DNA of 64,000 bases. Origin: Candidatus Saccharimonadales bacterium (GTDB lineage: Bacteria; Patescibacteriota; Saccharimonadia; Saccharimonadales; EFPC-124). The position numbers were made by a program, and so were the translations under genes. This document shows, piece by piece, positions 3,367 through 62,300 of the stretch (positions within the stretch are counted from its first letter, which is position 1; each line of letters starts with the position of its first letter). The stretch covers positions 5,778-69,777 of the forward strand of contig DATEFB010000007.1 of the NCBI GenBank assembly GCA_035280845.1, read 5' to 3'. The notes under the pieces were generated by a model. It did no database searches. It saw only the letters and a list, made by a program, of their open reading frames with translations, and was not told where the DNA came from.

Positions 3367-5148
3367 ATGAAATACTTGAATATAGGAATATTGGCACATG
3401 TAGACGCTGGCAAGACCAGCCTTACCGAACGGTTATTGTATACAGCGGGTGTGATCGACAAAATCGGCAGTGTCGACGCAGGCAATACTCAAACTGATTC
3501 ATTACAGCTTGAGCGTCAGCGCGGCATCACCATTAAATCGGCCGTCGCTTCGTTTGATATTGGCGATACGCGCGTCAACCTGATCGACACGCCCGGACAC
3601 CCCGATTTTATAGCCGAGGTAGAGCGTGTGTTGAGTGTGCTCGATGGTGTGGTGCTTGTCATTTCGGCCGTAGAAGGGGTGCAGCCGCAGACGCGCATTT
3701 TAATGCGAGCATTGCAACGCCTTAAGATCCCAACGGTCATCTTCGTAAATAAAATTGACCGCATGGGTGCTCGGTATGATGATTTGCTTGAGGAAATTGC
3801 CGCCAAGTTAAGCTTGGAAGCTGCGCCAATGGTGACAGTGGGGAATCTGGGCCATAAAAACGCCAATGTTAAGCTCAGCATTCAGGTTAAGCCGAGCAAT
3901 GCCACCCCGATATTCTTTGGTTCGGCTATCACGGGCGCGGGCGTCGTAGAGTTAATGAACACCCTGCCCACCCTGCTGTCTGGCGCGAATAATTCCGCAC
4001 AGGCTACTTCGGGCACTATTTTTAAGATCGAGCGTGGGCAGCGAGGCGAAAAGATCGCTTATCTGCGTATGTTTTCGGGCACAATCAGGGCGCGCGAAAA
4101 TTTGCCTTTCGGAAAAGTGGTCGCTCTACACGTTTATAGGCATGGTCAGACATTAGCGACAACAAGCCTTGGCGCCGGCGAGATTGGTAAGGTGTGGGGC
4201 TTGGGGAGGGCGCAGGTTGGCGATGTGGTGGGTGAAGCCAGTAATGCTATCTCTGCCTTTGCACCTCCGACGCTTGAAGCCGGTGTGGTTGCTAAAAATG
4301 CCCAACAACAGGCTGCACTAAACACTGCGCTAAAGCAGCTTGCCGAACAAGACCCGCTGATTAACCTCCGGCAAAGTGGGCAAAACTTGTACGTGTCGCT
4401 GTATGGCGAAGTGCAAAAAGAAGTAATTGCTATGACGCTTGCCCAAGATTTTGGCGTTGAGGCTGCATTTGAACGGACGCAGCCAATTTGCATTGAGCGC
4501 TTAGTCGGTACTGGCTACGCTGTGCAGTTTTTGCAGGAAGAGAGTAACCCGACTTCGGCAACGGTGGGGCTGCGCATTGAACCAGGCCAGCCTGGCTCGG
4601 GTTTAGTAGTTAGGCTCGAAAATATATCACCACGCCTTTTACCGCTTTACATCTATAAAAATACGAGTAACTTTGTCGGGCATATGCGTGAGTACGTCAT
4701 CGAAACTCTGAGGCACGGGCTAGAAGGGTTAGAGGTCACCGACTGTATAGTGACAATCACAGATAGCAATTACTATGTTGGCGACGGCATGGGCAAACCA
4801 ATAAGCGAGACACCCAAGACTACGGCGGCTGACTTTCGTGCATTAGCCCCAACCATTCTACATAAGGCGTTACAACAAGCGGGCACCGTGATATGCGAGC
4901 CAATATGTCATTTTACGCTAGAAGTCCCCAATGACGCTCTTGCCAGAATCTTGCCAGTACTTGCGCAGCTTCGTGCCATTCCAAGCTCCACAGAACCTGG
5001 GCGCGGGGTGTATGTTCTAAGAGGCGAGATTCCATCCGCCCTTATACACGACCTGCAGCAAAGGCTCCCGGATTTGACGAGCGGTGAAGGCTTTTTGGAG
5101 TATGTGTTTGATCGGTACGAGCCAAAACGTGGGTTTGAGCACCGCTAG
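3367..5148 (+). CDS. Tet(M)/Tet(O)/OtrA-type ribosomal protection GTPase homologue
   Basis: 593-aa translational GTPase. The N-terminus 'NIGILAHVDAGKTSLTERLLY..GSVD.G.T.TD...ERQRGITIKS...DTPGHPDFIAEVERVLSVLDG..LVISA.EGVQPQTRIL..AL..L.IPT..F.NKIDR' follows the Tet(M) N-terminus closely as I recall it. Confidence 0.7.
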   Translation: MKYLNIGILAHVDAGKTSLTERLLYTAGVIDKIGSVDAGNTQTDSLQLERQRGITIKSAVASFDIGDTRVNLIDTPGHPDFIAEVERVLSVLDGVVLVISAVEGVQPQTRILMRALQRLKIPTVIFVNKIDRMGARYDDLLEEIAAKLSLEAAPMVTVGNLGHKNANVKLSIQVKPSNATPIFFGSAITGAGVVELMNTLPTLLSGANNSAQATSGTIFKIERGQRGEKIAYLRMFSGTIRARENLPFGKVVALHVYRHGQTLATTSLGAGEIGKVWGLGRAQVGDVVGEASNAISAFAPPTLEAGVVAKNAQQQAALNTALKQLAEQDPLINLRQSGQNLYVSLYGEVQKEVIAMTLAQDFGVEAAFERTQPICIERLVGTGYAVQFLQEESNPTSATVGLRIEPGQPGSGLVVRLENISPRLLPLYIYKNTSNFVGHMREYVIETLRHGLEGLEVTDCIVTITDSNYYVGDGMGKPISETPKTTAADFRALAPTILHKALQQAGTVICEPICHFTLEVPNDALARILPVLAQLRAIPSSTEPGRGVYVLRGEIPSALIHDLQQRLPDLTSGEGFLEYVFDRYEPKRGFEHR

Positions 5149-6389
5149 TCCGTCGGTTGGTGGTCTGTGCTTTTCTGACGCAGCCAAAAATACACCGACC
5201 CTAAAACGAGTATCGTAACCATAATTATGACACTCCAGCGGATAGGTTCAACAATTTTGCCCTCTACTGCAAATATGCCTATGAGACTCAGCAGCGCGGC
5301 GGAAAGCAGCTTGCCAACAAAAGAATAGAGCGAGCCGAGTGTGGCCCGTGATTCGTCTGGGGCATGGTGCTGGATTTGCGTCTCGTTATGAACTGACATA
5401 ACGCGCAGCATCCTGGTAAGCAAGAAGAAGCCGATCACGGCTATAGCGGTGCCGCCCATAAAACTTAGTGCGAAGAGTGCTGTAAAGCCGAGGATGATCG
5501 CAAGATGGTGGCGCGCAATCTGAGCCTCCAAGTGATGCATCCACCAGTACAATACAACGGCCGTGGCGCCGCCGATCGAGATAAACAGCGCAACCATCTG
5601 AGTCGGCGTGCCCACTTGCTGGTAGTAGGCGGGCAGGTATTCGCCGAGCATACCCATTAAACCCTGCACAATAATGGCGCCGAACAAGATGCGACGCAAC
5701 AGAGGCTTGTCTTTGATTGTTTTTAGGGCGCCTGCTAAAACTTTAGGTTTTATATTAACTTCAACCTCGGTTTTGCTGTGTGTTGAAGGCAGTCTTAGCG
5801 TGATCCACAGTGACATTGCGCTCACCGCCACACTTAAAACAAGCAACAACGAGTAGTGCGGGCCAATAAGGAAAGCTGCAAAGCTACCGGCAGCGTATGC
5901 AAGCATAGTAAAAGCGCTGCTGCGTGCATAGATTTTGCCGAAAGCTTTTTTGTTTTTGTCGTCGAGCGATTCGTACAGGTATGCCTGGAATGCCCCCGAA
6001 ATAAACGCCTCGCCTATGCCCCACATAACAAATCCGGCGGCATAGCCCAAAAAGCTTGGGAACAAAAGCCACGTGGCAAATGTAGCGAGCTGCAAAACAT
6101 GGCCAAGCACGAGCGACCATTTTTTAGACATTTTGTCGGCAATAATGCCTGTGGGCACTTCGGCGAGTACAGAGACAACCATCCAAATAGCCAGCAGCAG
6201 ACCAATGCCAGTCGCAGAAACATCGCCCCGCTCGCCAAACATAATGACGTAGAACGGGTAAATGACAATAAATTCGGACATGAAGGACAGGGCGAAGATT
6301 CGCTTAGTGAGGGGCGGTAGCGGTTCGCGCGGTGTAGTGCTCCTGGCGCGGCCCAATAACGCGTATAAAGAAATACGTTTTTTACTCAT
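5145..6389 (-). CDS. MFS transporter
   Basis: About 12 hydrophobic helices. The start is moved to ATG 6389 (MSKKRISLYALL...). The ORF-track N-terminal extension to 6686 runs through an unrelated high-GC cassette and reads as low-complexity Arg/Ser/Pro. The stop overlaps the convergent GTPase stop in a shared CTAG (5145-5148). Confidence 0.75.
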   Translation of the reverse strand: MSKKRISLYALLGRARSTTPREPLPPLTKRIFALSFMSEFIVIYPFYVIMFGERGDVSATGIGLLLAIWMVVSVLAEVPTGIIADKMSKKWSLVLGHVLQLATFATWLLFPSFLGYAAGFVMWGIGEAFISGAFQAYLYESLDDKNKKAFGKIYARSSAFTMLAYAAGSFAAFLIGPHYSLLLVLSVAVSAMSLWITLRLPSTHSKTEVEVNIKPKVLAGALKTIKDKPLLRRILFGAIIVQGLMGMLGEYLPAYYQQVGTPTQMVALFISIGGATAVVLYWWMHHLEAQIARHHLAIILGFTALFALSFMGGTAIAVIGFFLLTRMLRVMSVHNETQIQHHAPDESRATLGSLYSFVGKLLSAALLSLIGIFAVEGKIVEPIRWSVIIMVTILVLGSVYFWLRQKSTDHQPTD

Positions 6390-6474: not shown

Positions 6475-6804
6475 CTAATGCCGGCGCAGGCGGTACACAA
6501 GCGCCGCGATGATGTACACGAGCACGAGACAGCCGATGAAGAGGGGGATGGACCCCCACCACGACCAGCCGAAGGCTGAGGTGAGGCCGCTCGCCAGCGC
6601 GCCCGATGGAACGAACAGGACGGCCGCCTTGGTGAAGTTCTCCCGGTAGCTTCCGCCGCCGAAACCGAAGGTGGCAATCTCGCCAACGCCGTGGATGACG
6701 CCGGCCAGGATTGCTGCCGCGACCAGCGCGATCAGGCCGCCCTTCAGCGCCCAGGCGATATCGCTCCCGGTCACATCGACAGTAAACTGCAGTGCTGCGT
6801 TCAT
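6475..6804 (-). CDS. Small three-helix membrane protein, unknown function (high-GC cassette A)
   Basis: 109 aa with a strong SD (aacaGGAGGaatgaATG) and mostly G/C third positions. Three hydrophobic segments. TTGACT-16-TATAAT lies in the AT-rich upstream flank. Confidence 0.6.
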   Translation of the reverse strand: MNAALQFTVDVTGSDIAWALKGGLIALVAAAILAGVIHGVGEIATFGFGGGSYRENFTKAAVLFVPSGALASGLTSAFGWSWWGSIPLFIGCLVLVYIIAALVYRLRRH

Positions 6805-7283: not shown

Positions 7284-8078
7284 ATGGAAAAGAAACTACA
7301 GTCATTCTTAGAAAAAACATTTGAACCCTACGGTGCGTTCCCATCCCGCGCAGACGTGATGCAGGAAATGCGCGTTAACTTGCAAGAGAAATACGCTGAC
7401 CTGAAAGGCCAGGGCATGGGCGACAAAGAAGCCTATGAAGCAACGATTGAATCGTTTGGTGACATTGCCGAAATCATGGAGCAATTGCCCCACGGCACAG
7501 CCGACGAGCCAGCTGCCCGCCGCGCAAGCAAAGCCAAGTTCAAAATGGTTTCGTTGAAGGAAGTTGACCTTGGCGACTCTAACCTGAGCACGGCGAACTT
7601 TAGCGGCAGTGATATTGCGGGCACATCGTTCGACAATTCGAACATGACCGGCGCGGTGATGATGGGCGCAAATGCCAAGAACACATCGTACGTTAATACA
7701 AACCTAACCGACGCTAAGTTCGGGGCAAGCAACCTGCAATACGCGCGTTTTAACAAAGCCAATCTGACTCGCACAACATTTAGTGCGTCTGCCTTGAAAG
7801 AAGTTAAGTTCACCGATGCAGTTTTGCTCGACACATTGTTTAGTCGCTGCGACATGGGCGGGGTAGCATTCGATAACCTCACTCTTGATGGTGTTGCCTT
7901 TGAAGCGACATCGCTCAAGGGAGTCACGTTTAAGGGTGCAACTATTACGAACGTGTCATTCCATCACAGTGAGGTAAAGCACGCCAACTTTGACGGCGCC
8001 ACAATGGACAAGGTAACCTACGCAATCCTGCAGGGTGCAAAAGCGAACCTGCAAAACGTTACTGTCGCAACGAGCTAG
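7284..8078 (+). CDS. PadR-associated N-terminal helical domain fused to a pentapeptide-repeat domain
   Basis: The N-terminus 'MEKKLQSFLEKTFEPYG...DVMQEMRVNLQEKYADLKGQGMGDKEAYEATIESFGDIAEI' resembles DUF1700-type partners of PadR. From about residue 95 there are tandem pentapeptide repeats ('ANFSGSDIAGTSFDNSNMTGAVMMGANAKNTSYVNTNLTDAKFGASNLQYARFNKANLTRTTF...'). Confidence 0.7.
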   Translation: MEKKLQSFLEKTFEPYGAFPSRADVMQEMRVNLQEKYADLKGQGMGDKEAYEATIESFGDIAEIMEQLPHGTADEPAARRASKAKFKMVSLKEVDLGDSNLSTANFSGSDIAGTSFDNSNMTGAVMMGANAKNTSYVNTNLTDAKFGASNLQYARFNKANLTRTTFSASALKEVKFTDAVLLDTLFSRCDMGGVAFDNLTLDGVAFEATSLKGVTFKGATITNVSFHHSEVKHANFDGATMDKVTYAILQGAKANLQNVTVATS

Positions 8079-8097
8079 TGCTATACTTACGTCTGTT

Positions 8098-9939
8098 ATG
8101 AGACGGCTCATTGCAGGCATTGTTGGGGTAAGTGCGTTCTTGTTTGCTGCAAGTATGTTGGTCGCGCCCCAAGTGGGCGCGTCTGCATATGGCGAAAGCC
8201 AGTACGGAATCTGCAAGTTCGAGCGTCGCTGTCCGCCAAAAAATACCGTAGCCGAGACAAAAGCCGGATTGCAGGTTGCAGTAAACCTGGTAGACGGCCA
8301 GCAGATTGCCCGCGGTGAATACGAAGTGAAGGTAACGCCGCTCAATGGCGACGGCCGGAGCTTTAAATACGTTGAATTTTATGTAGACGGCGTGTTAGTA
8401 AGTACCTTTTACCCGGATGAGACCGGGACTGCAGTCTGGTCTTGGGACACCAACCGGTATGCGGGCACAAACATAAAAGTGCTCATTTACGACACCGACG
8501 ACAGTGTGCTGACCCAGCAATTTACTGTGCGCATACTTGAGCCTGGGCAACAGCCTTCCGAGGAAGGGATTGACCCATCCTTATTGCCGGGCACAGCGGG
8601 CGGGCAGGGGAACGACAACGTTATTGCACAGTTCTTTGCGTTCCTTGAGGCGTCGGTGAGGGTCATCCCCACGCCGCTGGCGTTGAGCATTCCTTTGGTA
8701 TTGCTACTGGTGATGCTCGTTATTATTTTATTGCTATATATGCAAAGTCGGCGCGAGGCGGCAGAGATCCGTCGACAACAGCTGGCGCTTGCCCGTGCGC
8801 GCCAGCTCGCCGAAGAGAAAGATGGTTTTATTGAGCTTGTCTCGCACTATTTACGCACACCGTTGACACTTATTCGTGGCGGCATGGATTATATCGGCAG
8901 CATGCCAATTGGCGCAGGTATTCTGGCCGCGCTTACGAATGCTGTAAGTGTGTTCGGTGACTCCATCGAACGATTGGTCGGTGGTATTGCCGATGACCCG
9001 CGTCTGGCGACGATTCCTTCTGTGCCAGATGTTGGTAAGCCGCCACGTGTGTGGACGGCGCCGCAGTTTTGGGTTCCGGTCGCCAGCATTGGGCTGGTAC
9101 TCGCCCTTATGGATTATGTATTGCTTCGTGCGGGCAAGCTGGACGGATCGTTCATTGCGTTGGCCACACAGGTCGGTTTGTATGTGGCGTCGATTATTGC
9201 GTTGTACGCTGTGCTTCGATGGCGGCAATTGCAGGCGCGCGACAAGGCGCAGAACCAGCTACAGGAGCAGCAACAGGCTGCTATCGATGAAGCCCGTAAC
9301 GAACTCATACGCGAGGCTGCAGCCACGTTAGCATTAAAGCTGGATGCAATCCATAGCGCTATGGCCGGTGTGCCGGAAAGCCAGGGTAAGTCGTTTATGA
9401 ATGAAGGGTATGCCCGGATCGCAGAAGTACTGCGTCGGTTCCGTGCTACAGCTACTGTTGTGCCGCCGGTAACTGCCATGCCTTTTGTGCAGTTTACACT
9501 TGAATCGCTTGTGAGCCAGGCCGAAAAGCAAGTCGCGCAGGCCGCCGAGGCCAAACGCATAATATTTGTTGGTGGCACTGGCGATGTTACCTTGGCAAGC
9601 CCGCAGCCAGCATGGCTGGTGCAGGTGTTGGCGTCGGTGCTCGATAACGCCATTGCCTACAGCCCCGAGGGGTCGCAGATAGAAATAGGTGGGCAGGTAG
9701 AGCAGGGGATAGCTGTGTTATATGTTCGTGACCACGGCGAAGGCATCCCGGAAGCTAAACTTGCCGAGCTCTTCCAGCCATTTTCCAAGGCGGAGGGCGC
9801 CATGAAATTTGACCATCCGGGTATTGGGCTCAGCTTGTACCTGGACCGTTTGTTGGTCACTAACCTGGGCGGCAGCATCCATATAGAATCCAGCCCGGGC
9901 AGCGGCACAACCGTGCACATTGCCTTCCCAGTCCGCTAA
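8098..9939 (+). CDS. Sensor histidine kinase with an extracytoplasmic Ig-like domain (orphan)
   Basis: Signal/TM, then a ~170-aa beta-rich domain, then TM 'LALSIPLVLLLVMLVIILLLY'. H-box 'ELVSHYLRTPLTLIRG'; ATPase boxes 'VLDNAIAYSP', 'DHGEGIP', 'GIGLSLY', 'GGSIHIESSPGSGTTV'. No response regulator is adjacent. Alternative start at 8035. Confidence 0.8.
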   Translation: MRRLIAGIVGVSAFLFAASMLVAPQVGASAYGESQYGICKFERRCPPKNTVAETKAGLQVAVNLVDGQQIARGEYEVKVTPLNGDGRSFKYVEFYVDGVLVSTFYPDETGTAVWSWDTNRYAGTNIKVLIYDTDDSVLTQQFTVRILEPGQQPSEEGIDPSLLPGTAGGQGNDNVIAQFFAFLEASVRVIPTPLALSIPLVLLLVMLVIILLLYMQSRREAAEIRRQQLALARARQLAEEKDGFIELVSHYLRTPLTLIRGGMDYIGSMPIGAGILAALTNAVSVFGDSIERLVGGIADDPRLATIPSVPDVGKPPRVWTAPQFWVPVASIGLVLALMDYVLLRAGKLDGSFIALATQVGLYVASIIALYAVLRWRQLQARDKAQNQLQEQQQAAIDEARNELIREAAATLALKLDAIHSAMAGVPESQGKSFMNEGYARIAEVLRRFRATATVVPPVTAMPFVQFTLESLVSQAEKQVAQAAEAKRIIFVGGTGDVTLASPQPAWLVQVLASVLDNAIAYSPEGSQIEIGGQVEQGIAVLYVRDHGEGIPEAKLAELFQPFSKAEGAMKFDHPGIGLSLYLDRLLVTNLGGSIHIESSPGSGTTVHIAFPVR

Positions 9940-27078: not shown

Positions 27079-27282
27079 GACAATTTGCTCGTTTAATTTT
27101 TCCCATTATCTACCTTTAGTGAACCCGTTGCAATAGCGCCATTCGATCTATTGGCTATGCAAGATGCTTTTCATTCAAACGAACCTGTGTTAATTGTTAT
27201 TCAACCCCATGATCATTGTAAGCATCGTGAGGGCGTACCCAATCCGTTTCTCGATTCCCTCACAGAAGGGGGCCGAAAGCCC

Positions 27283-28770
27283 GTGCGTACAATTATGCGC
27301 AGGGTGGCAGTTGCTGCGACAGTGTTGTTAGCCCTTGTGGCTACCAACGCAGTCGTGGCGCCGCCCGCCTTTGCCGTAGCGATGAAGACGAACCGTGTCA
27401 TCCTGAACGGCGCAGATTGGTTGGGGGGCGACGGCGTCAACGTCTACTCCAATGATGGAAACTTCGACTCGAACATGGCCGACACTAACTATGTTAACGG
27501 AGTCCAAAGCGGCTACCGCTGGCAGTGCGTTGAGCTGGTGAACCGGCTCTACCTCACGCGCGGCTGGACAAGTACGTGGTGGTCGGGCAACGGCTATCAG
27601 ATGCTTGACAGCGCACCAGCCCACCTCGCCAAGTCAGCGAATGGCGCGATCCAGGCAATCAATCCAGGTGATGTCATCGTACTGGGTGGCGGCTGGTTAA
27701 ATTTCGGCCATGTCGCCATCGTTAGTGGCGTGACCGGGACGACAATCCATACCGTCAGCCAAAATCTCTCGACTGCGAACGATGGAGTCGGGGGTGACTT
27801 CACCTGGAACCAGTCCGCCAAGACGATCACGCCATGGTCGGGCTACTCGATGACGGGTGTCGTTCATGCTCCAAACGGCGGCGCGTCGGCTGGTAACGGT
27901 GGCACCCCACCCGGCCTCGGCTCCAAGATTGCCTCCGCCCGCCACGCAGATGGCCGCCTGGCCGTCTTCTACATCGGGGCTAACAGCGCGATTTACTACC
28001 GCAACCAGAACTCACCCGGTAGCATAGGTTGGACGTCGGAGATTCACATTCCGGCGTATGCGAAGGCAATCGCGGCAGTCACCAACGCACAAGGTCGGAT
28101 CGAGCTGTTCTACATCGGTGCCAACAATGGCCTGTATCACCGCTGGCAACCCTGGACGAATACCGACCAGTGGTCGCCCGAGGAATACTTCTCGGCCAAC
28201 ATCCGGGCAATCGCCGCAGCCAACAACGGCAACGGCATCCTGGCGGTGATCGCGGTTGGGTCGGACAACCAGTTGTACATCATGCAGCAGCCCGCGCCGA
28301 ACTCGTGGAACGGGCAATGGCACAACATCCCGGCGCAGTCCGTGGATATTGCCATGGCAACGGCGCACGACGGCCGCAACGAGCTGTTCCATGTCGGCAC
28401 CAACTACCAGACGTACCACCGCTGGGAGTGGTCACCGGGCTGCTGCTGGTCGTCGCCGGAGGAGGTCTGGGGTACGAATGTCCGCAAACTGGCCGCAACC
28501 CGCAACGCCGACGGCCGCATGGAGGTCTTCGCCATTGGCAGCAATGCCCAGATCTACAACAACTGGCAGCAACAAGCCGGTTCCAACTGGGCGAATACCT
28601 GGCCGTTGATTCCGGCTCAGGCGCGGTATATCGCGGCGGCGACCAACGTGGATGGCAGGCTGGAGATCTTCTACGTCGGAGCTAACAACTCTGTGTACCA
28701 CCGGCGGCAAACGCAAGCCGGGTGCTGCTGGGGGCCAGAGGACATCCTGCCCGCGAACGTTGCACCGTAG
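27283..28770 (+). CDS. Secreted CHAP/NlpC-P60-type amidase fused to a six-blade tectonin/tachylectin-like beta-propeller lectin
   Basis: Signal peptide 'RRVAVAATVLLALVATNAVVAPPAFA'. Catalytic Cys 'YRWQCVELVNRLY' and His 'FGHVAIVSG'. Six repeats of '(A/H)DGR.E.F.(I/V)G.N...Y.(R/N)WQ'. About 60% G+C by hand count of 28261-28320. GTG start 27283; ATG alternative at 27295. Confidence 0.75.
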   Translation: MRTIMRRVAVAATVLLALVATNAVVAPPAFAVAMKTNRVILNGADWLGGDGVNVYSNDGNFDSNMADTNYVNGVQSGYRWQCVELVNRLYLTRGWTSTWWSGNGYQMLDSAPAHLAKSANGAIQAINPGDVIVLGGGWLNFGHVAIVSGVTGTTIHTVSQNLSTANDGVGGDFTWNQSAKTITPWSGYSMTGVVHAPNGGASAGNGGTPPGLGSKIASARHADGRLAVFYIGANSAIYYRNQNSPGSIGWTSEIHIPAYAKAIAAVTNAQGRIELFYIGANNGLYHRWQPWTNTDQWSPEEYFSANIRAIAAANNGNGILAVIAVGSDNQLYIMQQPAPNSWNGQWHNIPAQSVDIAMATAHDGRNELFHVGTNYQTYHRWEWSPGCCWSSPEEVWGTNVRKLAATRNADGRMEVFAIGSNAQIYNNWQQQAGSNWANTWPLIPAQARYIAAATNVDGRLEIFYVGANNSVYHRRQTQAGCCWGPEDILPANVAP

Positions 28771-31197: not shown

Positions 31198-31267
31198 GAT
31201 TGACATGCTGGCAAAATTTGCCGTATGATTTGACGGTGCTCATTGTCTAGTGAGAAGGAGAGCACTC

Positions 31268-31603
31268 ATGACCCACGGTTTCAGTGGTTTCGGTGGCGGT
31301 GCCCCGCAGGGCGGTTACGACCAGCCGCTCCGCTGCCCGCGTGACAACGAACTCATGGCCAAGGTCAACGACCGGAACGCCAACGTTGTCATCGACCAGT
31401 GCCCGCGCTGCAAGGGCGTCTGGACGGACGCCGGCGAGATGGAGGCCATCGTGGCTTCCGTCACCAACGCGCCGGGCTTCCGTCCGCAGCCGAACTACGC
31501 GGCCTCCCACGGGAGCCACTCGGGTCACGGTGGTCACGGCGGCCACAACCGCCGTCACCACCGCACCAGCGACGGCATCTTCGGGAGCTTCTTCGGCTCC
31601 TGA
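31268..31603 (+). CDS. zf-TFIIB-type zinc-ribbon protein with His/Gly-rich tail (high-GC cassette C)
   Basis: SD GAAGGAG 7 nt upstream. 'LRCPRDNELMAKV...VVIDQCPRCKGVWTDAGEMEAI' matches the 'CPxC...CxxCxGxWxDxGE' zinc-ribbon family, with the first knuckle lacking its second Cys. Tail 'SHGSHSGHGGHGGHNRRHH'. Confidence 0.6.
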   Translation: MTHGFSGFGGGAPQGGYDQPLRCPRDNELMAKVNDRNANVVIDQCPRCKGVWTDAGEMEAIVASVTNAPGFRPQPNYAASHGSHSGHGGHGGHNRRHHRTSDGIFGSFFGS

Positions 31604-43651: not shown

Positions 43652-46105
43652 ATGGCACTCGAAAAGTACCACGCAAAACGCGATTTTAAGCAGACACCCG
43701 AACCAAAGGGTAAGCCTCGGGCATCGGGCAAAAAGTTGGCGTTCGTGGTACAGGAGCACCATGCTACGCGTCTGCATTATGATTTTCGGCTAGAACTTGA
43801 TGGCGTCCTGAAGAGTTGGGCTATTCCAAAGGGCCCGTCAATGGACCCGCACGAGCATCATCTGGCCGTCATGACCGAAGACCATCCATACGAATACCGT
43901 AAGTTCGAGGGTGTGATCCCCGAAGGCAATTACGGCGCTGGCAACGTGATTATTTGGGATGAAGGCTGGTACGAACCACGCGAGGAAACAGGCAACCAGG
44001 AAGATGTTTTGCGGCGCGAGGCCAAGAAAGGCCATATTACTTTTGTGCTTCACGGTAAAAAGCTGCACGGCGAATTCGCGCTGATTAAAATGGCAAATGC
44101 CAAAGACGATGACGCCTGGCTACTTGTAAAAAAAGGTGATGCTTTTGCCAGTACCAACGACATAACAAAGCAAGACGAGTCGGTAAAAAGCGGACGCACA
44201 GTCGACGAGGTACGGGGCGGCAAAAAAGTGCCCGACCTTTCTGCGTACGCTAAAAAAGCATCGCCGTGGGCGGTGAAACCAATGCTTTGCACGTTGGTGG
44301 ACGAGATCTTCGATAAAGAGGGCTGGTTATTCGAAATTAAGTGGGATGGCTACCGGGCAATCGGGCAGAGGCACGACTCTGACGTGCGGCTATACTCGCG
44401 CGCTGGCACCGATTTTATGACGCACTACCCGCCTGTTGCCGAAGCCTTTCGAGCGCTAAAGCACGACGTTATTCTGGACGGCGAGATTGTAGTAACTGAC
44501 GACGCTGGCGTACCGCATTTTGAATGGTTGCAAAGCTGGCGCCACGCACCGCAGGGTCGGTTGCAGTACCAAGCGTTCGATATTCTGTGGTGCGATGGGT
44601 TCGATGTGCGCACTATGCCACTTATTGAACGCAAAGCGTTGTTGCGGGCCGTGCTGCCGGGTGGATCGCTGCTTCGGTACAGCGACCACGTTGAAACAAA
44701 AGGCATGGCTCTGTTTGCTGAAATGCAGCGCCGGGGGCTGGAGGGCGTTGTTGCTAAAAAGGCAGATAGCCTGTACCAGGAGAATAATCGCGGGAGTGCC
44801 TGGCTCAAAATAAAGACGCATTTACGGCAGGAAATCGTGATCGGTGGGTATACTGAGCCGCGCGGTGGTCGCAAGTATTTAGGCTCGTTGCTCGCGGGCG
44901 TGTACCACAAGGGTGAATTTGTGTATGTGGGCCATTCTGGGGGTGGTATCCCCGACGACCAGCGCAAACTTCTGTTCGAGAGATTGCAGCGGCTGGAACG
45001 CAAGTCGTCACCATTTGCGACCGAGCCAAAACCAAACGCACCTGTGCATTGGGTGCGACCAGAGGTAGTCGCCGAAATGTCGTTTAGCGAATGGACCGAA
45101 GACGGCTACATGCGCCATCCTGCATTTGTGGGTCTAAGAACCGACAAGAAAGCTATAAACGTAAAGCGCGAGAAGCCAAAAAACGGCGTCGTGCCCGTAG
45201 CAAAAACAAAGGAGCATACTATGCCCGAGGCCAAAATAGAATTTACACACCTGGACAAAGTGTTTTTTCCAAAGCATAAATACACCAAAGGCGACATTAT
45301 TGATTATTACAAAACAGTCGCCAGTGTCATGTTGCCGTATGTAAAGGACCGCCCACATTCTATGCTGCGGCAGCCGGACGGCATAAAAGGCTTTGGGTTC
45401 TTCCAGAAAAACAACGAGCATTTGCCGGCGTGGGTGCCAAGCGCCGATATTTTTTCGGAGTCTAATAACGAAGATTTGCATTGGATTGTCGGCGGCGAGC
45501 TGGACACGCTTTTGTACATGGTGCAGCTGGGAACGATCGAAATAAATCCCTGGAATTCACGAGTCGGCCATTTAAACAAGCCCGACTGGATTGTGATTGA
45601 CCTTGATCCTGACGGCGCACGGACATTCAAAGACGTGGTCGAGGTGGCGCACACGGTAAAGGCAGTCTGCGACGAGTGGCACATTCCAACTTACCCAAAA
45701 ACATCGGGCAAAACCGGCATCCATATTTTTGTGCCAATGCAGGCAAAATACACCTATGAGCAAGCCAAGAACCTGGCGCATTTAATTGTGCTTGAGGTGA
45801 ACCAACGGCAGCCAAAAATAACCAGCGTCGAGCGCATGCCAGACAAGCGCCGCAACAAAATTTACCTGGATTTCTTGCAAAACCGCGAAGGCCAAACGCT
45901 TGCCGCACCCTATTCTGTGAGACCAACACCCGACGCGAGCGTCTCGGCGCCGCTGCACTGGCACGAGGTGACGCCAGCCTTAAAACCCTCTGACTTTACG
46001 ATTAAAAATATGCCTGCCCGCATTAAAAAATATGGTGATTTATGGAAGCCGGTCATGGGCAAAGGGATTGATCTGGCGAAAACACTTAAGAAGATAGGCG
46101 ATTAG
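43652..46105 (+). CDS. ligD: Multidomain ATP-dependent DNA ligase LigD (phosphoesterase-ligase-polymerase order)
   Basis: PE domain 'FVVQEHHATRLHYDFRLE...WAIPKGPS'. Ligase 'FEIKWDGYRA' (KxDG). Pol/primase domain 'PDWIVIDLDP...KTSGKTGIHIFVP'. Confidence 0.9.
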   Translation: MALEKYHAKRDFKQTPEPKGKPRASGKKLAFVVQEHHATRLHYDFRLELDGVLKSWAIPKGPSMDPHEHHLAVMTEDHPYEYRKFEGVIPEGNYGAGNVIIWDEGWYEPREETGNQEDVLRREAKKGHITFVLHGKKLHGEFALIKMANAKDDDAWLLVKKGDAFASTNDITKQDESVKSGRTVDEVRGGKKVPDLSAYAKKASPWAVKPMLCTLVDEIFDKEGWLFEIKWDGYRAIGQRHDSDVRLYSRAGTDFMTHYPPVAEAFRALKHDVILDGEIVVTDDAGVPHFEWLQSWRHAPQGRLQYQAFDILWCDGFDVRTMPLIERKALLRAVLPGGSLLRYSDHVETKGMALFAEMQRRGLEGVVAKKADSLYQENNRGSAWLKIKTHLRQEIVIGGYTEPRGGRKYLGSLLAGVYHKGEFVYVGHSGGGIPDDQRKLLFERLQRLERKSSPFATEPKPNAPVHWVRPEVVAEMSFSEWTEDGYMRHPAFVGLRTDKKAINVKREKPKNGVVPVAKTKEHTMPEAKIEFTHLDKVFFPKHKYTKGDIIDYYKTVASVMLPYVKDRPHSMLRQPDGIKGFGFFQKNNEHLPAWVPSADIFSESNNEDLHWIVGGELDTLLYMVQLGTIEINPWNSRVGHLNKPDWIVIDLDPDGARTFKDVVEVAHTVKAVCDEWHIPTYPKTSGKTGIHIFVPMQAKYTYEQAKNLAHLIVLEVNQRQPKITSVERMPDKRRNKIYLDFLQNREGQTLAAPYSVRPTPDASVSAPLHWHEVTPALKPSDFTIKNMPARIKKYGDLWKPVMGKGIDLAKTLKKIGD

Positions 46106-52051: not shown

Positions 52052-52597
52052 TCAATGTGCCAGCATGACACCACGCATGGCCGGCTGTTCCTGGAATGCC
52101 GCGACGAGCGATTCGACATCGCTCGTCGACAGCTCAGTGGCAGCCGTCAGACGCTCCACATATTCGGGGTTGGGGCCGCTTGCGACCAGTCCGCCCAGGG
52201 CTTCCCATTCGGCCAGGTCCAGATCGGGCACGGGCACCAGCGGTCGATGGCGCCGGTGCATGTCGTCGAGGTGGTCGAGGATGGTGATCGGCTGGCCTTG
52301 CGGCGAGTACGGTCCCCACTCATTCAGGATCCGAAGCCGCAGGCCTTCTGCGACGTCAGTCGCTCCGAGCCTGGCCAGCGCCGTGAAGACGCCAGTCGCG
52401 GTAGTGCGGTAGTCGAGCGTGCTGCTGTAGTAGGCGGGCCAGGGCCGCTCGTCGTCCCGCGGCTTGGTGAGTGTGGCCTCGGTCTCGGCGAACTTGTTCA
52501 GGGTCCGCAGGGCGAGGTACCACAACTCCCTTATGCGGTTGATGCGCATCCGTTCCTTGTGGGCGGCAATCGCGTCTGCGTCGGGCTCTCGGCTCAT
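52052..52597 (-). CDS. Hypothetical cytosolic protein (high-GC cassette D)
   Basis: 181 aa from ATG 52597 (AAGGGAG upstream). Third codon positions are overwhelmingly G/C in this frame, which argues for it over the antisense ORF. A GC-rich hairpin lies at about 52003-52035. Confidence 0.55.
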   Translation of the reverse strand: MSREPDADAIAAHKERMRINRIRELWYLALRTLNKFAETEATLTKPRDDERPWPAYYSSTLDYRTTATGVFTALARLGATDVAEGLRLRILNEWGPYSPQGQPITILDHLDDMHRRHRPLVPVPDLDLAEWEALGGLVASGPNPEYVERLTAATELSTSDVESLVAAFQEQPAMRGVMLAH

Positions 52598-55078: not shown

Positions 55079-55120
55079 AAAAGAGCACCTCGCATCAGCG
55101 GGGTGTTTTTATTGTCGGAT

Positions 55121-55165
55121 TGGGGTGTCCCCCGGGTTGCAGCGATAAGCTCTGCTGCAACCCGG
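55121..55165 (-). terminator. 13-bp GC-rich hairpin downstream of the alpha-CTD-like ORF
   Basis: ccccgggttgcag ... ctgcaacccgggg is a perfect inverted repeat, 23 nt past the stop at 55188. Confidence 0.55.
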
Positions 55166-55187
55166 GGAGACCGGTTTGTGGAGCCGG

Positions 55188-55625
55188 TCAGGCGGCGAGC
55201 GCCGGGACGGCGTCCTCCTTCAGCTTGAGCCGGGCGTCGAGCGCGGCGAGCTTGGGGACGATGTCCAGGTCGATGGTCCGCTGACCGATGCCCTTGATGC
55301 CCAGCAGGTCGGCCTCGCTGAGGTCGATGAGCTGGCCCACCGTGTGGATGCCGGCCTTCTTGAGGGCGTTGTAGGGCCGGATGCCCAGCTTGACGTCCTC
55401 GATCGTCTGCGCGCGCAGGTTCTCCAGCGGGACGACGGTCGGCGTCTGGCCCGTGGTGCTGGCGCGCGCGATCCGCGAGATGCCCTTGCTGGGGCTGGCG
55501 GTGTTGCCGACCGGGGTCTTGTTGAGGGACCGCTTGGTGGCCGGCGGGGGCACGATGCCGTTGCGCAGGTTGCGCGCCTTCTTGCGGCGCTGGTTGCGGC
55601 GACGGTCGGCCAGGGTCATACGCAT
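55188..55625 (-). CDS. Stand-alone RNA polymerase alpha-subunit C-terminal-domain (alpha-CTD, HhH) like protein with a basic N-terminus (high-GC cassette E)
   Basis: 'IEDVKLGIRPYNALKKAGIHTVGQLIDLSEADLLGIKGIGQRTIDLDIVPKL' parallels the RpoA CTD 'LELSVRSxNCLKRxGIxTxGELxxxxExxLLxIxNxGxKSxxEIKxxL'. N-terminus 'RRRNQRRKKARNLRN'. SD GGAGG. 69 G+C in 55201-55300 by hand count. TTGCAT-17-TATTAT in the AT-rich flank. Confidence 0.7.
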   Translation of the reverse strand: MRMTLADRRRNQRRKKARNLRNGIVPPPATKRSLNKTPVGNTASPSKGISRIARASTTGQTPTVVPLENLRAQTIEDVKLGIRPYNALKKAGIHTVGQLIDLSEADLLGIKGIGQRTIDLDIVPKLAALDARLKLKEDAVPALAA

Positions 55626-55779
55626 AACTTACCTCCGGAAGGAGACGGTCTGAGATGACTAAAAAATATAATACCACAAATATTGTTATAATGCAAGCAT
55701 TTTGTTACCACGAGCAGTTTGCGTGTGCCCGGCATCCTACGCTACAATGTCTGTATCAGGTAATCGTAAGGGAGACTGT

Positions 55780-56214
55780 ATGACCAGTATTGACCAACAG
55801 TTTGTGGAGTTCATTGTAAAATCGCTTGTCAGCAAACCAGAGGCAGTTACCATCGAGCGCCGCATTGATGAAAAAGGCGTATTGCTTGAACTGACCGTTG
55901 ACCCCGAAGACCTTGGCCGCGTTATTGGCAAGCGGGGTGCAACCGCTCAGAGCGTGCGTACATTGCTCCGCGCCCTTGGTACAAAGAATGACGCACGGTA
56001 CAACTTGAAAATCGTTGATGTTGACCGCCCAGGCGGCGTTTCGACTGACGGCTCAGATGATCCTGCAGTGGCCGACGACGAAGATACTACCCCATTAAGT
56101 GCTGCTCCAAGCAAGCCTGTGGAAGAAACAACAGAGAAGCCTGTGGAAGAAAAAGAATCAGTAGCAAGTCGGACCAGAAAAGAACTTGCAGATATGGATG
56201 ATCTCGACATATAA
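55780..56214 (+). CDS. KH-domain RNA-binding protein (YlqC/KhpA-like) with acidic C-terminal extension
   Basis: 'FVEFIVKSLVSKPEAVTIERRIDEKGVLLELTVDPEDLGRVIGKRGATAQSVRTLLRA'. AAGGGAG SD. Confidence 0.8.
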   Translation: MTSIDQQFVEFIVKSLVSKPEAVTIERRIDEKGVLLELTVDPEDLGRVIGKRGATAQSVRTLLRALGTKNDARYNLKIVDVDRPGGVSTDGSDDPAVADDEDTTPLSAAPSKPVEETTEKPVEEKESVASRTRKELADMDDLDI

Positions 56215-56414: not shown

Positions 56415-56759
56415 TCAGCAGATGAAGCGCGCGGCCTCGGCGGCGATGGCTCTCATCCTGATTGGAACGTCCTCGGGGACTCCGTGCAGGATGTAGACAT
56501 CGATTGTGCAGTTCCAGACCAGGCCGTGCGACGGCGCGTCGTAGCGGCCCTCTGGCGCCCTTGTCGGGTCGGACCACAGGTAGGCGAGGTGTTCGAACGC
56601 CCTGAGCGCAGCAGCATCCTCTGTGGTCGCCTCATCGGCGACAGTTTCGGTATCCACTCCCAGCTCGGCGCAAATGCGCAACTGGATGAGCTGGTAGATT
56701 GCCGGGGTCGGACGTGTTGCTTGCTGAAGGGCGGCGTCTGTCGTGGCGAACGGTGTCAC
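56415..56759 (-). CDS. Hypothetical protein (high-GC cassette F)
   Basis: 115 aa from GTG 56759 (GAAGGAG upstream; TTGAAA-17-TATAGT further up). G/C-rich third positions. 11-bp GC hairpin cgcccgcaccc/gggtgcgggcg lies just past the stop (about 56375-56410). Confidence 0.45.
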   Translation of the reverse strand: MTPFATTDAALQQATRPTPAIYQLIQLRICAELGVDTETVADEATTEDAAALRAFEHLAYLWSDPTRAPEGRYDAPSHGLVWNCTIDVYILHGVPEDVPIRMRAIAAEAARFIC

Positions 56760-57814: not shown

Positions 57815-58228
57815 ATGGGGTTATTCACTAAATTCATTAAACCTGTGTATGCTCACTGCGATGTTCCGTGCGGCATCTACGAAACTGACACAATGCGCCA
57901 CGCTGCCGACACCTGCCTAAAGATGATCGAGAAAATCGAAGCCTTACCAGATGAAATGGGTGAGAAGTCGGCCGACCACAACAACTACATCCGCATGGTC
58001 ATGACCAAAGAAAAGCACGCCCAGCTGTGTAAAGAGCAGATTTATCTTTTATGGAGCGATTACTTTAAGCCTGAGCACCTGCAAAAGTTCCCCGACCTGC
58101 ACGACACTATGTGGCAAGCGGCCAAGCAGTGCGGTAAGGTTAAGCAAACCGTCAGCCGTGAAGAAGTGCAGAAACTTATTGACCAAGTAGCAACAATATC
58201 TAAGGTTTTTGAGGAATCGCACCACTAA
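57815..58228 (+). CDS. sodN: Nickel superoxide dismutase precursor
   Basis: Pro-peptide 'MGLFTKFIKPVYA' followed by the Ni-hook 'HCDVPCGIY'. Confidence 0.9.
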   Translation: MGLFTKFIKPVYAHCDVPCGIYETDTMRHAADTCLKMIEKIEALPDEMGEKSADHNNYIRMVMTKEKHAQLCKEQIYLLWSDYFKPEHLQKFPDLHDTMWQAAKQCGKVKQTVSREEVQKLIDQVATISKVFEESHH

Positions 58229-58508
58229 GATGTTTCTTATACGGCGCGTCGAAGGTTTAAGCATGGCTCCTGCATATCCACACGGTAAAATCGTGTTTGC
58301 GTGGCGTCGTAAGGTGGCGCGGGTGGGTGATGTGGTGATTGTGCAGCACCATAAAATGGAGCTTATTAAGCGTGTTGGCCAGATCTCGAATGAAGGGGTG
58401 TACGTTGTTGGCGACAACCCAGACAACAGCACCGACAGCCGGCATTATGGCTGGTTGCCGCTTGGCTCTATAATAGGCGTTGTAATAGGGGGACAGGCCC
58501 GTGATTAA
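58209..58508 (+). CDS. sodX: S26-family NiSOD maturation peptidase
   Basis: 'GLSMAPAYPHG' (catalytic Ser), 'GDVVIVQH...ELIKRV', 'GDNPDNSTDSRHYG'. Overlaps the sodN 3' end. Confidence 0.75.
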   Translation: MRNRTTKMFLIRRVEGLSMAPAYPHGKIVFAWRRKVARVGDVVIVQHHKMELIKRVGQISNEGVYVVGDNPDNSTDSRHYGWLPLGSIIGVVIGGQARD

Positions 58509-59648: not shown

Positions 59649-59723
59649 TGGCGAGTGGCCAAGTGGTAAGGCGCCGCACTCTGGATGCGGAGATCGAAGG
59701 TTCGACCCCTTCCTCGCCAGCCA
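59649..59723 (+). tRNA. tRNA-Gln (CUG), CCA encoded
   Basis: Acceptor tggcgag/ctcgcca (U1:A72 as in bacterial tRNA-Gln), anticodon loop ct-CTG-ga, T-loop ggttcgacc. Confidence 0.85.
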
Positions 59724-61829: not shown

Positions 61830-62300
61830 GTGTTGGAGAGTACATTGCCCGGAGTGTGGCACATCCAAGGCACTCACGAGAACATGCGGCTGGCGTTCCA
61901 CGACAACCGCACCTGGTACCTGGGCGGAACAAAAAGCCCGGCAATGAGTGGTACCTGGGAGACGACCTATGCTGGAGTGACGATGCGCGCGACGCAGGTC
62001 GGCTCTGCTGCTGGGCGTGGGCTTGCCATTGCGGCCGCCGGTCTGGTGCTCGGCCTGTCACTGGGCACTGCGGTGGTTGTTGCGCCTGCGGTGATCGCGG
62101 GCATCGTGGCATCGAACGCCCAGCGGGAGGGGAATCCTGGCCCCTTCGCCACGTTTGGCCGGTTCGATGTCTTCACTGGCAGGGCTGTGGCGGAGTACCA
62201 GCTCGTGACAGAGTCGCACTACCAGGTCGTCATGCGGTGCGACTTCCGGAACGGCAGTTACTCCGATACTCACCTCGCCACGCTTACCCGCGTGGCCTGA
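61830..62300 (+). CDS. Hypothetical protein with a central Ala/Gly/Val-rich TM hairpin (high-GC cassette G)
   Basis: GTG start with AGGAGG 5 nt upstream. 156 aa. 'GLAIAAAGLVLGLSLGTAVVVAPAVIAGIVA'. Followed by a 12-bp hairpin plus T5. Confidence 0.5.
   Translation: MLESTLPGVWHIQGTHENMRLAFHDNRTWYLGGTKSPAMSGTWETTYAGVTMRATQVGSAAGRGLAIAAAGLVLGLSLGTAVVVAPAVIAGIVASNAQREGNPGPFATFGRFDVFTGRAVAEYQLVTESHYQVVMRCDFRNGSYSDTHLATLTRVA

Follow-up and report, generated by a model that had tools for sequence, protein, structure and literature searches.

A stand-alone RNA polymerase alpha-CTD protein encoded in the rpsP-KH slot of one Saccharimonadales clade

The C-terminal domain of the RNA polymerase alpha subunit (alpha-CTD; Pfam PF03118) contacts DNA through R265 and K298, residues of the so-called 265 determinant, which reads A/T-rich UP elements (PMC9178005). 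In Mycobacterium tuberculosis, the homologous residues of the alpha-CTD touch promoter DNA beside the activator GlnR (PMC10235972). Here we describe a gene that encodes such a domain as a protein of its own. The gene occupies positions 55188-55625 on the minus strand of a 64,000-nucleotide stretch of a Candidatus Saccharimonadales genome (GenBank assembly GCA_035280845.1, contig DATEFB010000007.1, positions 5,778 to 69,777), which we refer to as the window. According to the list of open reading frames (ORFs), its product, here called E, has 145 amino acids (aa); its mass is 15.7 kDa.

The closest described domains are the alpha-CTDs of complete alpha subunits (RpoA), such as those of Streptomyces coelicolor (7vpd, 8hvr) and M. 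tuberculosis (5uh5), which resemble E in fold, in their helix-hairpin-helix (HhH) motifs and in the DNA-contact residues. E differs from them by the absence of the N-terminal domain, by a new Arg-rich N-terminus, by a lysine in place of E261, by a one-residue insertion and by a proline in the last helix. Moreover, E evolves quickly, whereas the alpha-CTD of RpoA is highly conserved. Stand-alone alpha-CTD proteins of phages (105-240 aa in BFVD, for example A0A2P1JY10 of Rhodococcus phage Finch, A0A5Q2WLP1 of Mycobacterium phage Mithril, and several from uncultured Caudovirales) are small like E, and like E combine the alpha-CTD fold with an unrelated extension. However, they are 15-31% identical to E, and the gene for E is part of the chromosome, where it keeps to one slot amid housekeeping genes. 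In the literature on stand-alone alpha-CTD proteins, we found no function for the phage proteins and nothing directly relevant.

Alpha-CTD-like HhH units outside RpoA, as in E, are also found in multi-repeat proteins (P0013 with 6 repeats, P0014 with 11). These are the top matches among the 122 proteins retrieved at an expectation value of 1e-10 or lower from 1.84 billion representatives. Their high ranks arise because several repeats are summed: single domains score 33-43 bits, compared to 74 bits for P0038, a true orthologue of E. Their architecture differs from that of E, with which they share no common N-terminus. Full-length rpoA genes on records deposited as Streptomyces plasmids (L061 680-1696, NZ_CP109579.1; L062 2317-3333, NZ_CP108493.1; matches H15-H32) have a CTD near-identical to the S. 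coelicolor RpoA fragment. Their products are 41-49% identical to E, and the genes are a conceivable mobile source, but they encode 338-aa alpha subunits with N-terminal domain, unlike the CTD-only E. Finally, the kinase PglW of Pgl/BREX (phage growth limitation/bacteriophage exclusion) systems contains an alpha-CTD-like HhH module at positions ~790-865, to which E shows domain-level likeness (16.5-23 bits over ~70 residues, against a cut-off of 990). E has no kinase domain and there are no BREX genes nearby, and with nothing beyond this sub-threshold likeness to the PglW module, we rejected the assignment of E to a defence system.

Domain, fold and DNA-contact residues

Pfam finds a single domain in E, RNA_pol_A_CTD (PF03118), at residues 70-125 (expectation value 7.7e-14, 51.6 bits, against a gathering cut-off of 23.8 bits). 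An earlier reading of the DNA from sequence only had recognized the domain by a helix and a hairpin motif; both are present (IRPYNALKKAGIHTVGQL and LLGIKGIGQRT), and the Pfam search confirms the identification. The AlphaFold2 model, which was built on a shallow alignment of 12 sequences, consists of three parts. Residues 1-28 (55542-55625), which are conserved in the relatives P0002 and P0003, form an Arg/Lys-rich N-terminus with a predicted helix at residues 5-21 (predicted local distance difference test score, pLDDT, of ~90 for residues 1-20). A Pro/Thr/Ser-rich linker follows (residues 29-66, 55428-55541), predicted to be disordered, with pLDDT below 50 for residues 35-61. Residues 67-129 (55239-55427) are helical, with pLDDT of 89-94, and adopt the HhH fold of the alpha-CTD. 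In a Foldseek search of the PDB, nearly all matches to the model were RNA polymerase alpha-CTDs, on which the predicted domain superposes with root-mean-square deviations of 1.0-1.1 Å over 66-70 residues and target template-modelling scores of 0.8-0.9 (3n4m, 3k4g, 8hvr_K, 1z3e_B). Top sequence identity among these matches was that of the S. coelicolor alpha-CTD (46-49%). The basic character of the N-terminal part, also pointed out earlier, is pronounced: residues 1-70 contain 16 lysines and arginines versus 2 aspartates and glutamates (isoelectric point 12.0, compared to 11.15 for the entire protein).

Residues 1-66 consist of the basic helix and the linker, and neither of the Pfam families for the dimerization and core-assembly domain of the alpha subunit (PF01000, PF01193) was found in E. 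Scores against RpoA equivalog models are far below cut-off (NF003514, 51.3 vs 434; TIGR02027, 43.4 vs 227.8). Because the N-terminal domain is absent, E is not RpoA and not an RNA polymerase subunit, and for the same reason it can neither dimerize nor assemble into the polymerase core.

We aligned the E. coli rpoA product (from NC_000913.3) with E and its relatives. Residues L262, R265, N268, C269, G296, K298 and S299 of the E. coli protein correspond to L80, R83, N86, A87, G114, R116 and T117 of E. In the 265 determinant, four positions are thus identical, two are conservatively replaced (K298 by arginine, S299 by threonine), and C269 is replaced by alanine. The equivalents of R265 and G296 are invariant across all members of the family described below.

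The family and its slot between rpsP and the KH gene

The gene for E has plus-strand neighbours on both sides: rnc and rpsP lie upstream, a gene for a KH-domain (KhpA-like) protein and trmD downstream. The window lies on an ENA metagenome contig (ERZ27257114, k141_1243579; 72.5 kb) that is also found at NCBI, within a Candidatus Saccharimonadales metagenome-assembled genome. The identical gene in identical context is present in two separate assemblies. This agreement, together with orthologues in the same slot in other metagenomes, rules out an assembly chimera. An antisense ORF (55176-55658, plus strand) was also ruled out as the true gene, since the Pfam match, the homologues, and the order of G+C contents at the three codon positions (GC3>GC1>GC2) all favour the minus frame.

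Full-length relatives of E are exceedingly few. Two, P0002 and P0003, 43-44% identical to E, were found among 5.8 billion clusters; an exhaustive search of the 1.84 billion representatives yielded one more (P0038), a profile search added P0163, and a metagenomic locus contributed L063 g1 (L063 3476-4033). Word-index protein searches were sparse (3, 10 and 4 matches), and direct pattern scans of JGI metagenomes and GTDB genomes gave no relatives. The loci of the relatives were reached with rpsP as an anchor. We define the slot family, comprising E and these five proteins, by a basic N-terminus, a C-terminal alpha-CTD, a location between rpsP and the KH gene on the strand opposite to theirs, and GC3 of at least 0.8 (for the four members with DNA: E, P0038, P0163 and L063 g1; P0002 and P0003 are left out of the composition figures). 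All these characters are found in E. Members lie in the rpsP-KH slot on the opposite strand in L059, L060, L063 and two JGI contigs; for P0163, the KH side alone is visible, since the contig ends there. PF03118 scores vary widely in the family (P0163 78 bits, P0038 67, L063 g1 57, E 52, P0002 22, P0003 19). Shared derived characters are an insertion after 'ID', the proline in the last helix and the motif AAL(D/N/T)PP; the one-residue insertion and the proline are common to E, P0038 and L063 g1.

The family is confined to one clade of Saccharimonadales, in which the housekeeping proteins of family-bearing genomes are 77-84% identical to those of the window. Among 58 Saccharibacteria-like loci with collinear rpsP and KH genes, the gap between the two has a median of 98 bp, and the slot is empty in 55, with inserts in L063, L064 and L007 only. 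In the empty site of L003, the rpsP hairpin is directly followed by 'aagcagtttgcg...tacgctacaat', which equals window positions 55710-55748 and belongs to the KH promoter sequence. As the rpsP hairpin of L003 directly abuts this sequence, the inserted module (hairpin, ORF, Shine-Dalgarno sequence and AT-rich promoter) extends approximately from 55120 to 55700, past the rpsP transcription unit and short of the KH promoter. No direct repeats or target-site duplication were found at its boundaries, where the terminator hairpin is the sole repeat structure; there is no integrase or transposase gene within 10 kb on either side, no Rfam match to the module and no adjacent tRNA gene (the nearest is at 59649). 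An integron-type or other site-specific mobile cassette is not supported, considering the absence of boundary repeats and of integrases or transposases, and the differences (by eye) among the hairpins of the six high-GC genes of the window. Our data suggest that the family has been inherited vertically since its fixation in the ancestor of one soil clade of Saccharimonadales.

The slot and its surroundings harbour other genes as well. A second family of 157-158 aa, with 26% mutual identity and native G+C content, is found in the rpsP-KH slot of L063 (4101-4577, minus strand; g2) and L064 (3488-3961, minus strand). In L063, g2 adjoins the high-GC member g1. The C-termini of these proteins are weakly alpha-CTD/HhH-like (22 and 15 bits against PF03118, below threshold). 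In the distant gut Saccharibacterium S32M_St_metabat_32, the gene for P0161 (MDO4978840.1; L020 4453-4989, minus strand; 168 aa) is convergent to rpsP. Its product has a coiled-coil-like N-terminus and an alpha-CTD-like C-terminus, and its GC3 of 0.41 is native to the locus (45% G+C). Neither P0161 nor the second family was accepted into the slot family: they score ~29 bits to everything, E and RpoA proteins alike.

As the sequence-only reading had noticed, the gene for E is conspicuously rich in G+C (70.1%, with GC3 of 0.973) when compared to the adjacent rpsP (51.6%, GC3 0.41). The window overall has 52.7% G+C, and GC3 in nine neighbouring genes is 0.41-0.61. The earlier reading saw in this composition a high-GC cassette of foreign origin, and a recent arrival does not withstand the comparison with the orthologues. 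These share the slot and have high GC3 too (P0038 0.92, P0163 0.95, L063 g1 0.82), next to adjoining genes with GC3 of 0.44-0.6. Between E and P0038, 59% of third bases are shared at four-fold sites under identical amino acids, compared to 46% expected at saturation for a G/C-only composition; for the flanking rpsP, KH, rnc, NUDIX and nusB genes, 40-49% are shared compared to 25-31% expected. The residual synonymous signal is thus ~1/5 both in E and in the flanking genes, or in other words, synonymous divergence of the gene is as deep as that of its housekeeping neighbours. It appears that the gene diverged together with its genome, while third positions swapped G for C and stayed G+C. By this evidence, high GC3 is an equilibrium property of the gene in these genomes rather than the signal of an import that has not yet ameliorated. 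Because GC3 persists through a synonymous turnover comparable to that of the neighbours, the composition is no simple donor signature.

Maintenance of a GC3 of 0.82-0.97 through near-saturating synonymous change calls for an explanation. One candidate cause is a recombination hot spot with biased gene conversion; another is selection acting on the composition of codons or of the nucleic acid. An inability to decode G-ending codons was considered as the cause of the bias and set aside; the little that is visible speaks against it, as the window has genes for tRNA-Lys(CTT) and tRNA-Gln(CTG). A cultivated Patescibacterium has been reported to import host RNA and to have a codon usage that complements its host's (preprint 10.64898/2026.06.21.733656), which makes host-like codon usage in a few genes more conspicuous without explaining it. 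Our search of the literature on high-GC genes in Saccharibacteria returned nothing directly relevant. More generally, the case illustrates that a gene of unusual G+C content is not necessarily a recent arrival, which bears on how 'foreign islands' in such genomes are read.

The family is also hypervariable. E and P0002 share 24 of residues 1-28 (86%) and all of the last six residues, compared to 36% of the remainder, and the neighbouring small gene F on the JGI contig of P0002 is 91% identical to its counterpart in the window. The alpha-CTD of E resembles its counterpart in L059 (56% identity), a more distant genome, more closely than that of P0002. Such a mosaic suggests that alleles were replaced, or that the alpha-CTD part is under diversifying selection.

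Origin and possible role

The RpoA sequences compared in our rankings and tree include no Saccharimonadales rpoA. Within this set, the nearest relatives of the family are actinobacterial. P0163, the least diverged member, aligns to residues 203-311 of S. coelicolor RpoA, a stretch that takes in the final helix of the N-terminal domain as well as linker and CTD. Against RpoA proteins in the PDB, it scores 68.7 bits with S. coelicolor, 60 with mycobacteria, ~50-53 with Firmicutes, 41 with E. coli and 25 with Thermus; E ranks them in the same order with smaller margins. The best RpoA matches to P0163 in a large protein collection are fragments with 58-66% identity (62-66% for those of actinobacterial type), among which P0168 is 81% identical to Streptomyces RpoA, and P0163 has the strings LPIEELNLTIR.YN and IRNFG in common with them. 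All five tested family members (E, P0002, P0003, P0038 and P0163) score highest with the NCBIfam model NF003514. P0168 also does so by a wide margin (255 bits, compared to 134 for the next model), and two non-actinobacterial RpoA proteins prefer other sub-models. In a rough neighbour-joining tree, the actinobacterial RpoA group has P0163, L063 g1, P0038 and E as its sister, while P0002 and P0003 sit elsewhere on a long branch. Taken together, this speaks for the capture of a 3' fragment of rpoA, most probably of the actinobacterial type. Saccharibacteria epibionts usually have Actinobacteria as their hosts.

The sequence-only reading had also proposed an actinobacterial or actinophage origin, and had done so from base composition. 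The actinobacterial part is supported by the structure ranking, the sub-models, the database fragments and the tree; composition itself is no straightforward guide to the donor. An actinophage source is not supported: no PHROG family matches E and no relative was found in IMG/VR. INPHARED matches are limited to the domain, with at most 53% identity, in records that resemble bacterial rpoA and include no actinophage relative. BFVD likeness is limited to the fold. A phage origin was therefore rejected.

The model that we favour, and in which we have moderate confidence, is that E acts as a free alpha-CTD outside the polymerase, binding A/T-rich DNA and modulating transcription or the nucleoid. 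In this model, a 3' portion of rpoA, most probably of actinobacterial type, would have supplied the alpha-CTD part, which would have been joined to a new basic N-terminus, a sigma-70-type promoter and a Shine-Dalgarno sequence. The construct would then have reached fixation in the rpsP-KH slot of the ancestor of a single soil clade of Saccharimonadales, followed by vertical inheritance, very fast evolution and mosaic replacement of the alpha-CTD part. The free domain would bind the minor groove of A/T-rich, UP-element-like DNA through its 265 determinant, this being the most likely target because the minor-groove contact residues are kept, and the Arg-rich N-terminal helix would assist. The outcome would be a modulation of transcription or of nucleoid structure, possibly by competition with polymerase-borne alpha-CTDs.

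Several points weigh against this model. The equivalent of N268 is lost in P0002 and P0003, the sigma-contact residue E261 is a lysine in E, and the family diverges rapidly; all three speak against a faithful imitation of the surfaces of the polymerase's alpha-CTD. The label 'mimic', used in the sequence-only reading, is thus doubtful, considering also the fall of the PF03118 score from 78 to 19 bits across the family. As to the source of the domain, amino acid usage at high G+C could inflate the likeness to actinobacterial proteins, and margins are small, with 51.3 versus 44.9 bits for E among the NCBIfam models, and 57-63 bits compared to 60 bits for a non-actinobacterial RpoA. A lineage-internal rpoA duplicate may have been driven to high G+C later on. 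The occupation of the rpsP-KH slot by a second family of native G+C content (L063 g2, L064) suggests that the slot may have had a less simple past, and the capture of an alpha-CTD leaves the maintained GC3 unexplained.

An origin within the lineage is the first alternative to be weighed. E would derive from the organism's own Saccharimonadales rpoA, or from an older alpha-CTD/HhH-like gene of the slot of the kind seen in L063, L064 and L020, and would have become G+C-rich later, its likeness to actinobacterial RpoA being a convergence through amino acid composition. We consider this unlikely. If GC3 is at equilibrium, composition is silent on the donor; alpha-CTD/HhH-like genes of native G+C do exist in the slot (L063, L064) and beside rpsP (P0161 in L020); and the preference of E for actinobacterial over other RpoA types is modest. 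However, the strings IRNFG and LPIEELNLTIR.YN, which P0163 shares with actinobacterial proteins, are typical of these and not driven by G+C content, and P0163 ranks S. coelicolor RpoA 8-16 bits above the mycobacterial and Firmicute proteins. P0164, seemingly a CPR-like (Candidate Phyla Radiation) RpoA of unverified taxon, has the lowest scores with the family (47-51 bits, compared to 57-82), and P0161 and the second family resemble E no more than they do any RpoA (~29 bits).

A second alternative shifts the site of action to another cell. E might be exported or transferred into an actinobacterial host and act there as a decoy of the host polymerase's alpha-CTD. It would reprogram host transcription by titrating the activators that dock on this domain (of the GlnR, AfsR or DosR type) or by occupying upstream A/T-rich DNA, with the Arg-rich N-terminus helping it to enter or to reach nucleic acids. 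The actinobacterial type of the domain and the host-like codon usage fit this model, as does the use of the alpha-CTD by actinobacterial activators (PMC10235972; AfsR complex 8hvr). The mosaic, hypervariable pattern (E and P0002 at 86% identity over residues 1-28 and 36% over the rest, with gene F at 91%) is typical of conflict genes. However, the search for secretion signals proposed in the sequence-only reading gave a negative answer, with no signal peptide or hydrophobic segment in E (maximum 15-aa hydropathy 0.97). There is no secretion system or chaperone gene nearby, where the neighbours are housekeeping genes. Codon usage would be irrelevant for a factor delivered as protein, and a decoy should keep the surfaces of its target, yet the family drifts away from RpoA. 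On balance, we regard a host-directed effector as improbable.

Related to this model is the broader and more speculative idea, to which we assign a still lower probability, that in the soil Saccharimonadales clade selection keeps a group of small genes, each with its own promoter, at an actinobacteria-like codon usage because they work at the interface between epibiont and host. These genes would have GC3 of 0.75-0.97 in a genome of 52.7% G+C, and the captured host-type alpha-CTD would be their extreme case. Two versions are conceivable: E could be a hypervariable effector that imitates the activator-docking and DNA-binding module of the host polymerase, or the expression of such genes could be coupled to nucleic acids or tRNAs derived from the host. 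If true, host-matched genes would form a previously unrecognized class in CPR bacteria.

E could also be an RNA-binding or ribosome-associated factor, tied to rpsP and the KhpA-like KH gene, with an Arg-rich RNA-binding helix and an HhH domain placed on structured RNA. This is quite improbable. It is true that the N-terminal RRRNQRRKKAR is predicted to be helical (pLDDT ~90) and that the flanking genes encode RNA-binding proteins. However, the gene has been inserted on the opposite strand into an otherwise contiguous gene pair and brings a promoter and a terminator of its own, so that its adjacency to rpsP and the KH gene is no sign of co-function. Moreover, the residues that are conserved in the family are the DNA-contact residues of the alpha-CTD. 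That the gene is inert DNA left over from a horizontal transfer, or the cargo of a phage or mobile element, with no cellular role, would be in line with the atypical composition, the small size and the few genomes. This reading is largely refuted, and hence very improbable, since at least seven lineages and alleles have kept the ORF intact through near-saturated synonymous change, the layout of promoter, Shine-Dalgarno sequence and terminator is kept, the R265 and G296 equivalents are invariant, and flanking repeats, a nearby integrase or transposase, a PHROG match and an IMG/VR relative are all absent.

Little is known of how CPR bacteria, as ultrasmall epibionts, regulate their own cells and those of their hosts, and they have few recognizable regulators. 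A long-kept free alpha-CTD, apparently derived from the polymerase of the host phylum, is a concrete candidate for an interaction at the level of transcription, and the protein, being small and easily expressed, makes it directly testable. The domain call was already part of the NCBI annotation, and stand-alone alpha-CTD proteins are a known, though uncharacterized, kind. What is new is the architecture and the family, the apparent host-phylum origin in an epibiont, the fixed slot, the mosaic alleles and the lasting extreme GC3.

Local signals and other genes of the window

The span originally assigned to the gene (55121-55625) encloses the ORF, and its surplus (55121-55187) carries a G+C-rich inverted repeat (I1) just 3' of the stop codon, at 55130-55167 on the minus strand. 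With perfect 14-bp arms and a 10-nt loop, it is predicted to fold into a hairpin of -43.1 kcal/mol (z = -7.3) and, although it has no U-tract, presumably serves as terminator. The start codon can be placed at 55625 or at 55619. The NCBI record HKX72826.1 ([quoted passage not shown]) begins at the second ATG and has 143 aa. The evidence favours the 145-aa form, because the first ATG has the better Shine-Dalgarno spacing (6 nt) and the start MRMTLAD is kept in P0002 and P0003. The Shine-Dalgarno sequence GGAGG lies at 55632-55636, and the promoter-like element at 55668-55696 consists of TTGCAT (55691-55696), a 17-nt spacer and TATTAT (55668-55673), the latter as an extended -10 element (TG-n-TATTAT). 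Both signals had been noted in the earlier reading and are confirmed, and the layout recurs upstream of the orthologues in L059 and L060, with GGAGG and with TG directly 5' of the -10 hexamer. A generic promoter scan did not flag the site, because TTGCAT matches TTGACA in 3 of 6 positions only. The source annotation also lists a 42-aa ORF at 55655-55783 (plus strand), 5' of the KH gene and overlapping the promoter region of the alpha-CTD gene; the P0002 contig has an equivalent call. Conserved intergenic sequence has probably been mistaken for a gene here.

The window contains five more small genes of 109-181 aa with GC3 of 0.75-0.84, at 6475-6804 (minus strand), 31250-31603 (plus), 52052-52597 (minus), 56415-56759 (minus) and 61830-62300 (plus). 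Each of them has an AT-rich promoter-like region, a GGAGG-type Shine-Dalgarno sequence and a long G+C-rich hairpin past the stop codon. None has a significant match in Pfam, PHROG, NCBIfam or PADLOC; a weak HxsA4-like match of 31250-31603 is the only one. A larger gene at 27151-28770 (plus strand; 539 aa) has GC3 of 0.73. High-GC3 genes in shared intergenic slots also occur in related loci. L007 has in its rpsP-KH slot a gene for an unrelated 180-aa protein (4559-5101, minus strand; GC3 0.86) with a perfect TTGACA-17-TATAAT promoter, and L059 has, besides a gene at 5388-5771 (minus strand), a 214-aa gene (7787-8431, plus strand) at the place of the 181-aa gene of the window, without detectable similarity to it. 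These intergenic slots thus seem to act as hot spots.

L007 (DATMTU010000052.1) and L004 (JBLMYZ010000043.1) are labelled as Dongiaceae and Acidobacteriota, respectively. Both show a Saccharibacteria-type gene order, with proteins 59-75% identical to those of the window, and are probably mis-binned contigs in GTDB species representatives of other phyla. Further genes of the window encode a nickel superoxide dismutase (Sod_Ni; 57815-58228, plus strand), followed by an S24/S26-type peptidase (58209-58508, plus strand), and a multidomain LigD (43652-46105, plus strand). All three seem unusual equipment for a CPR bacterium, and SodN is also found in several of the related loci.

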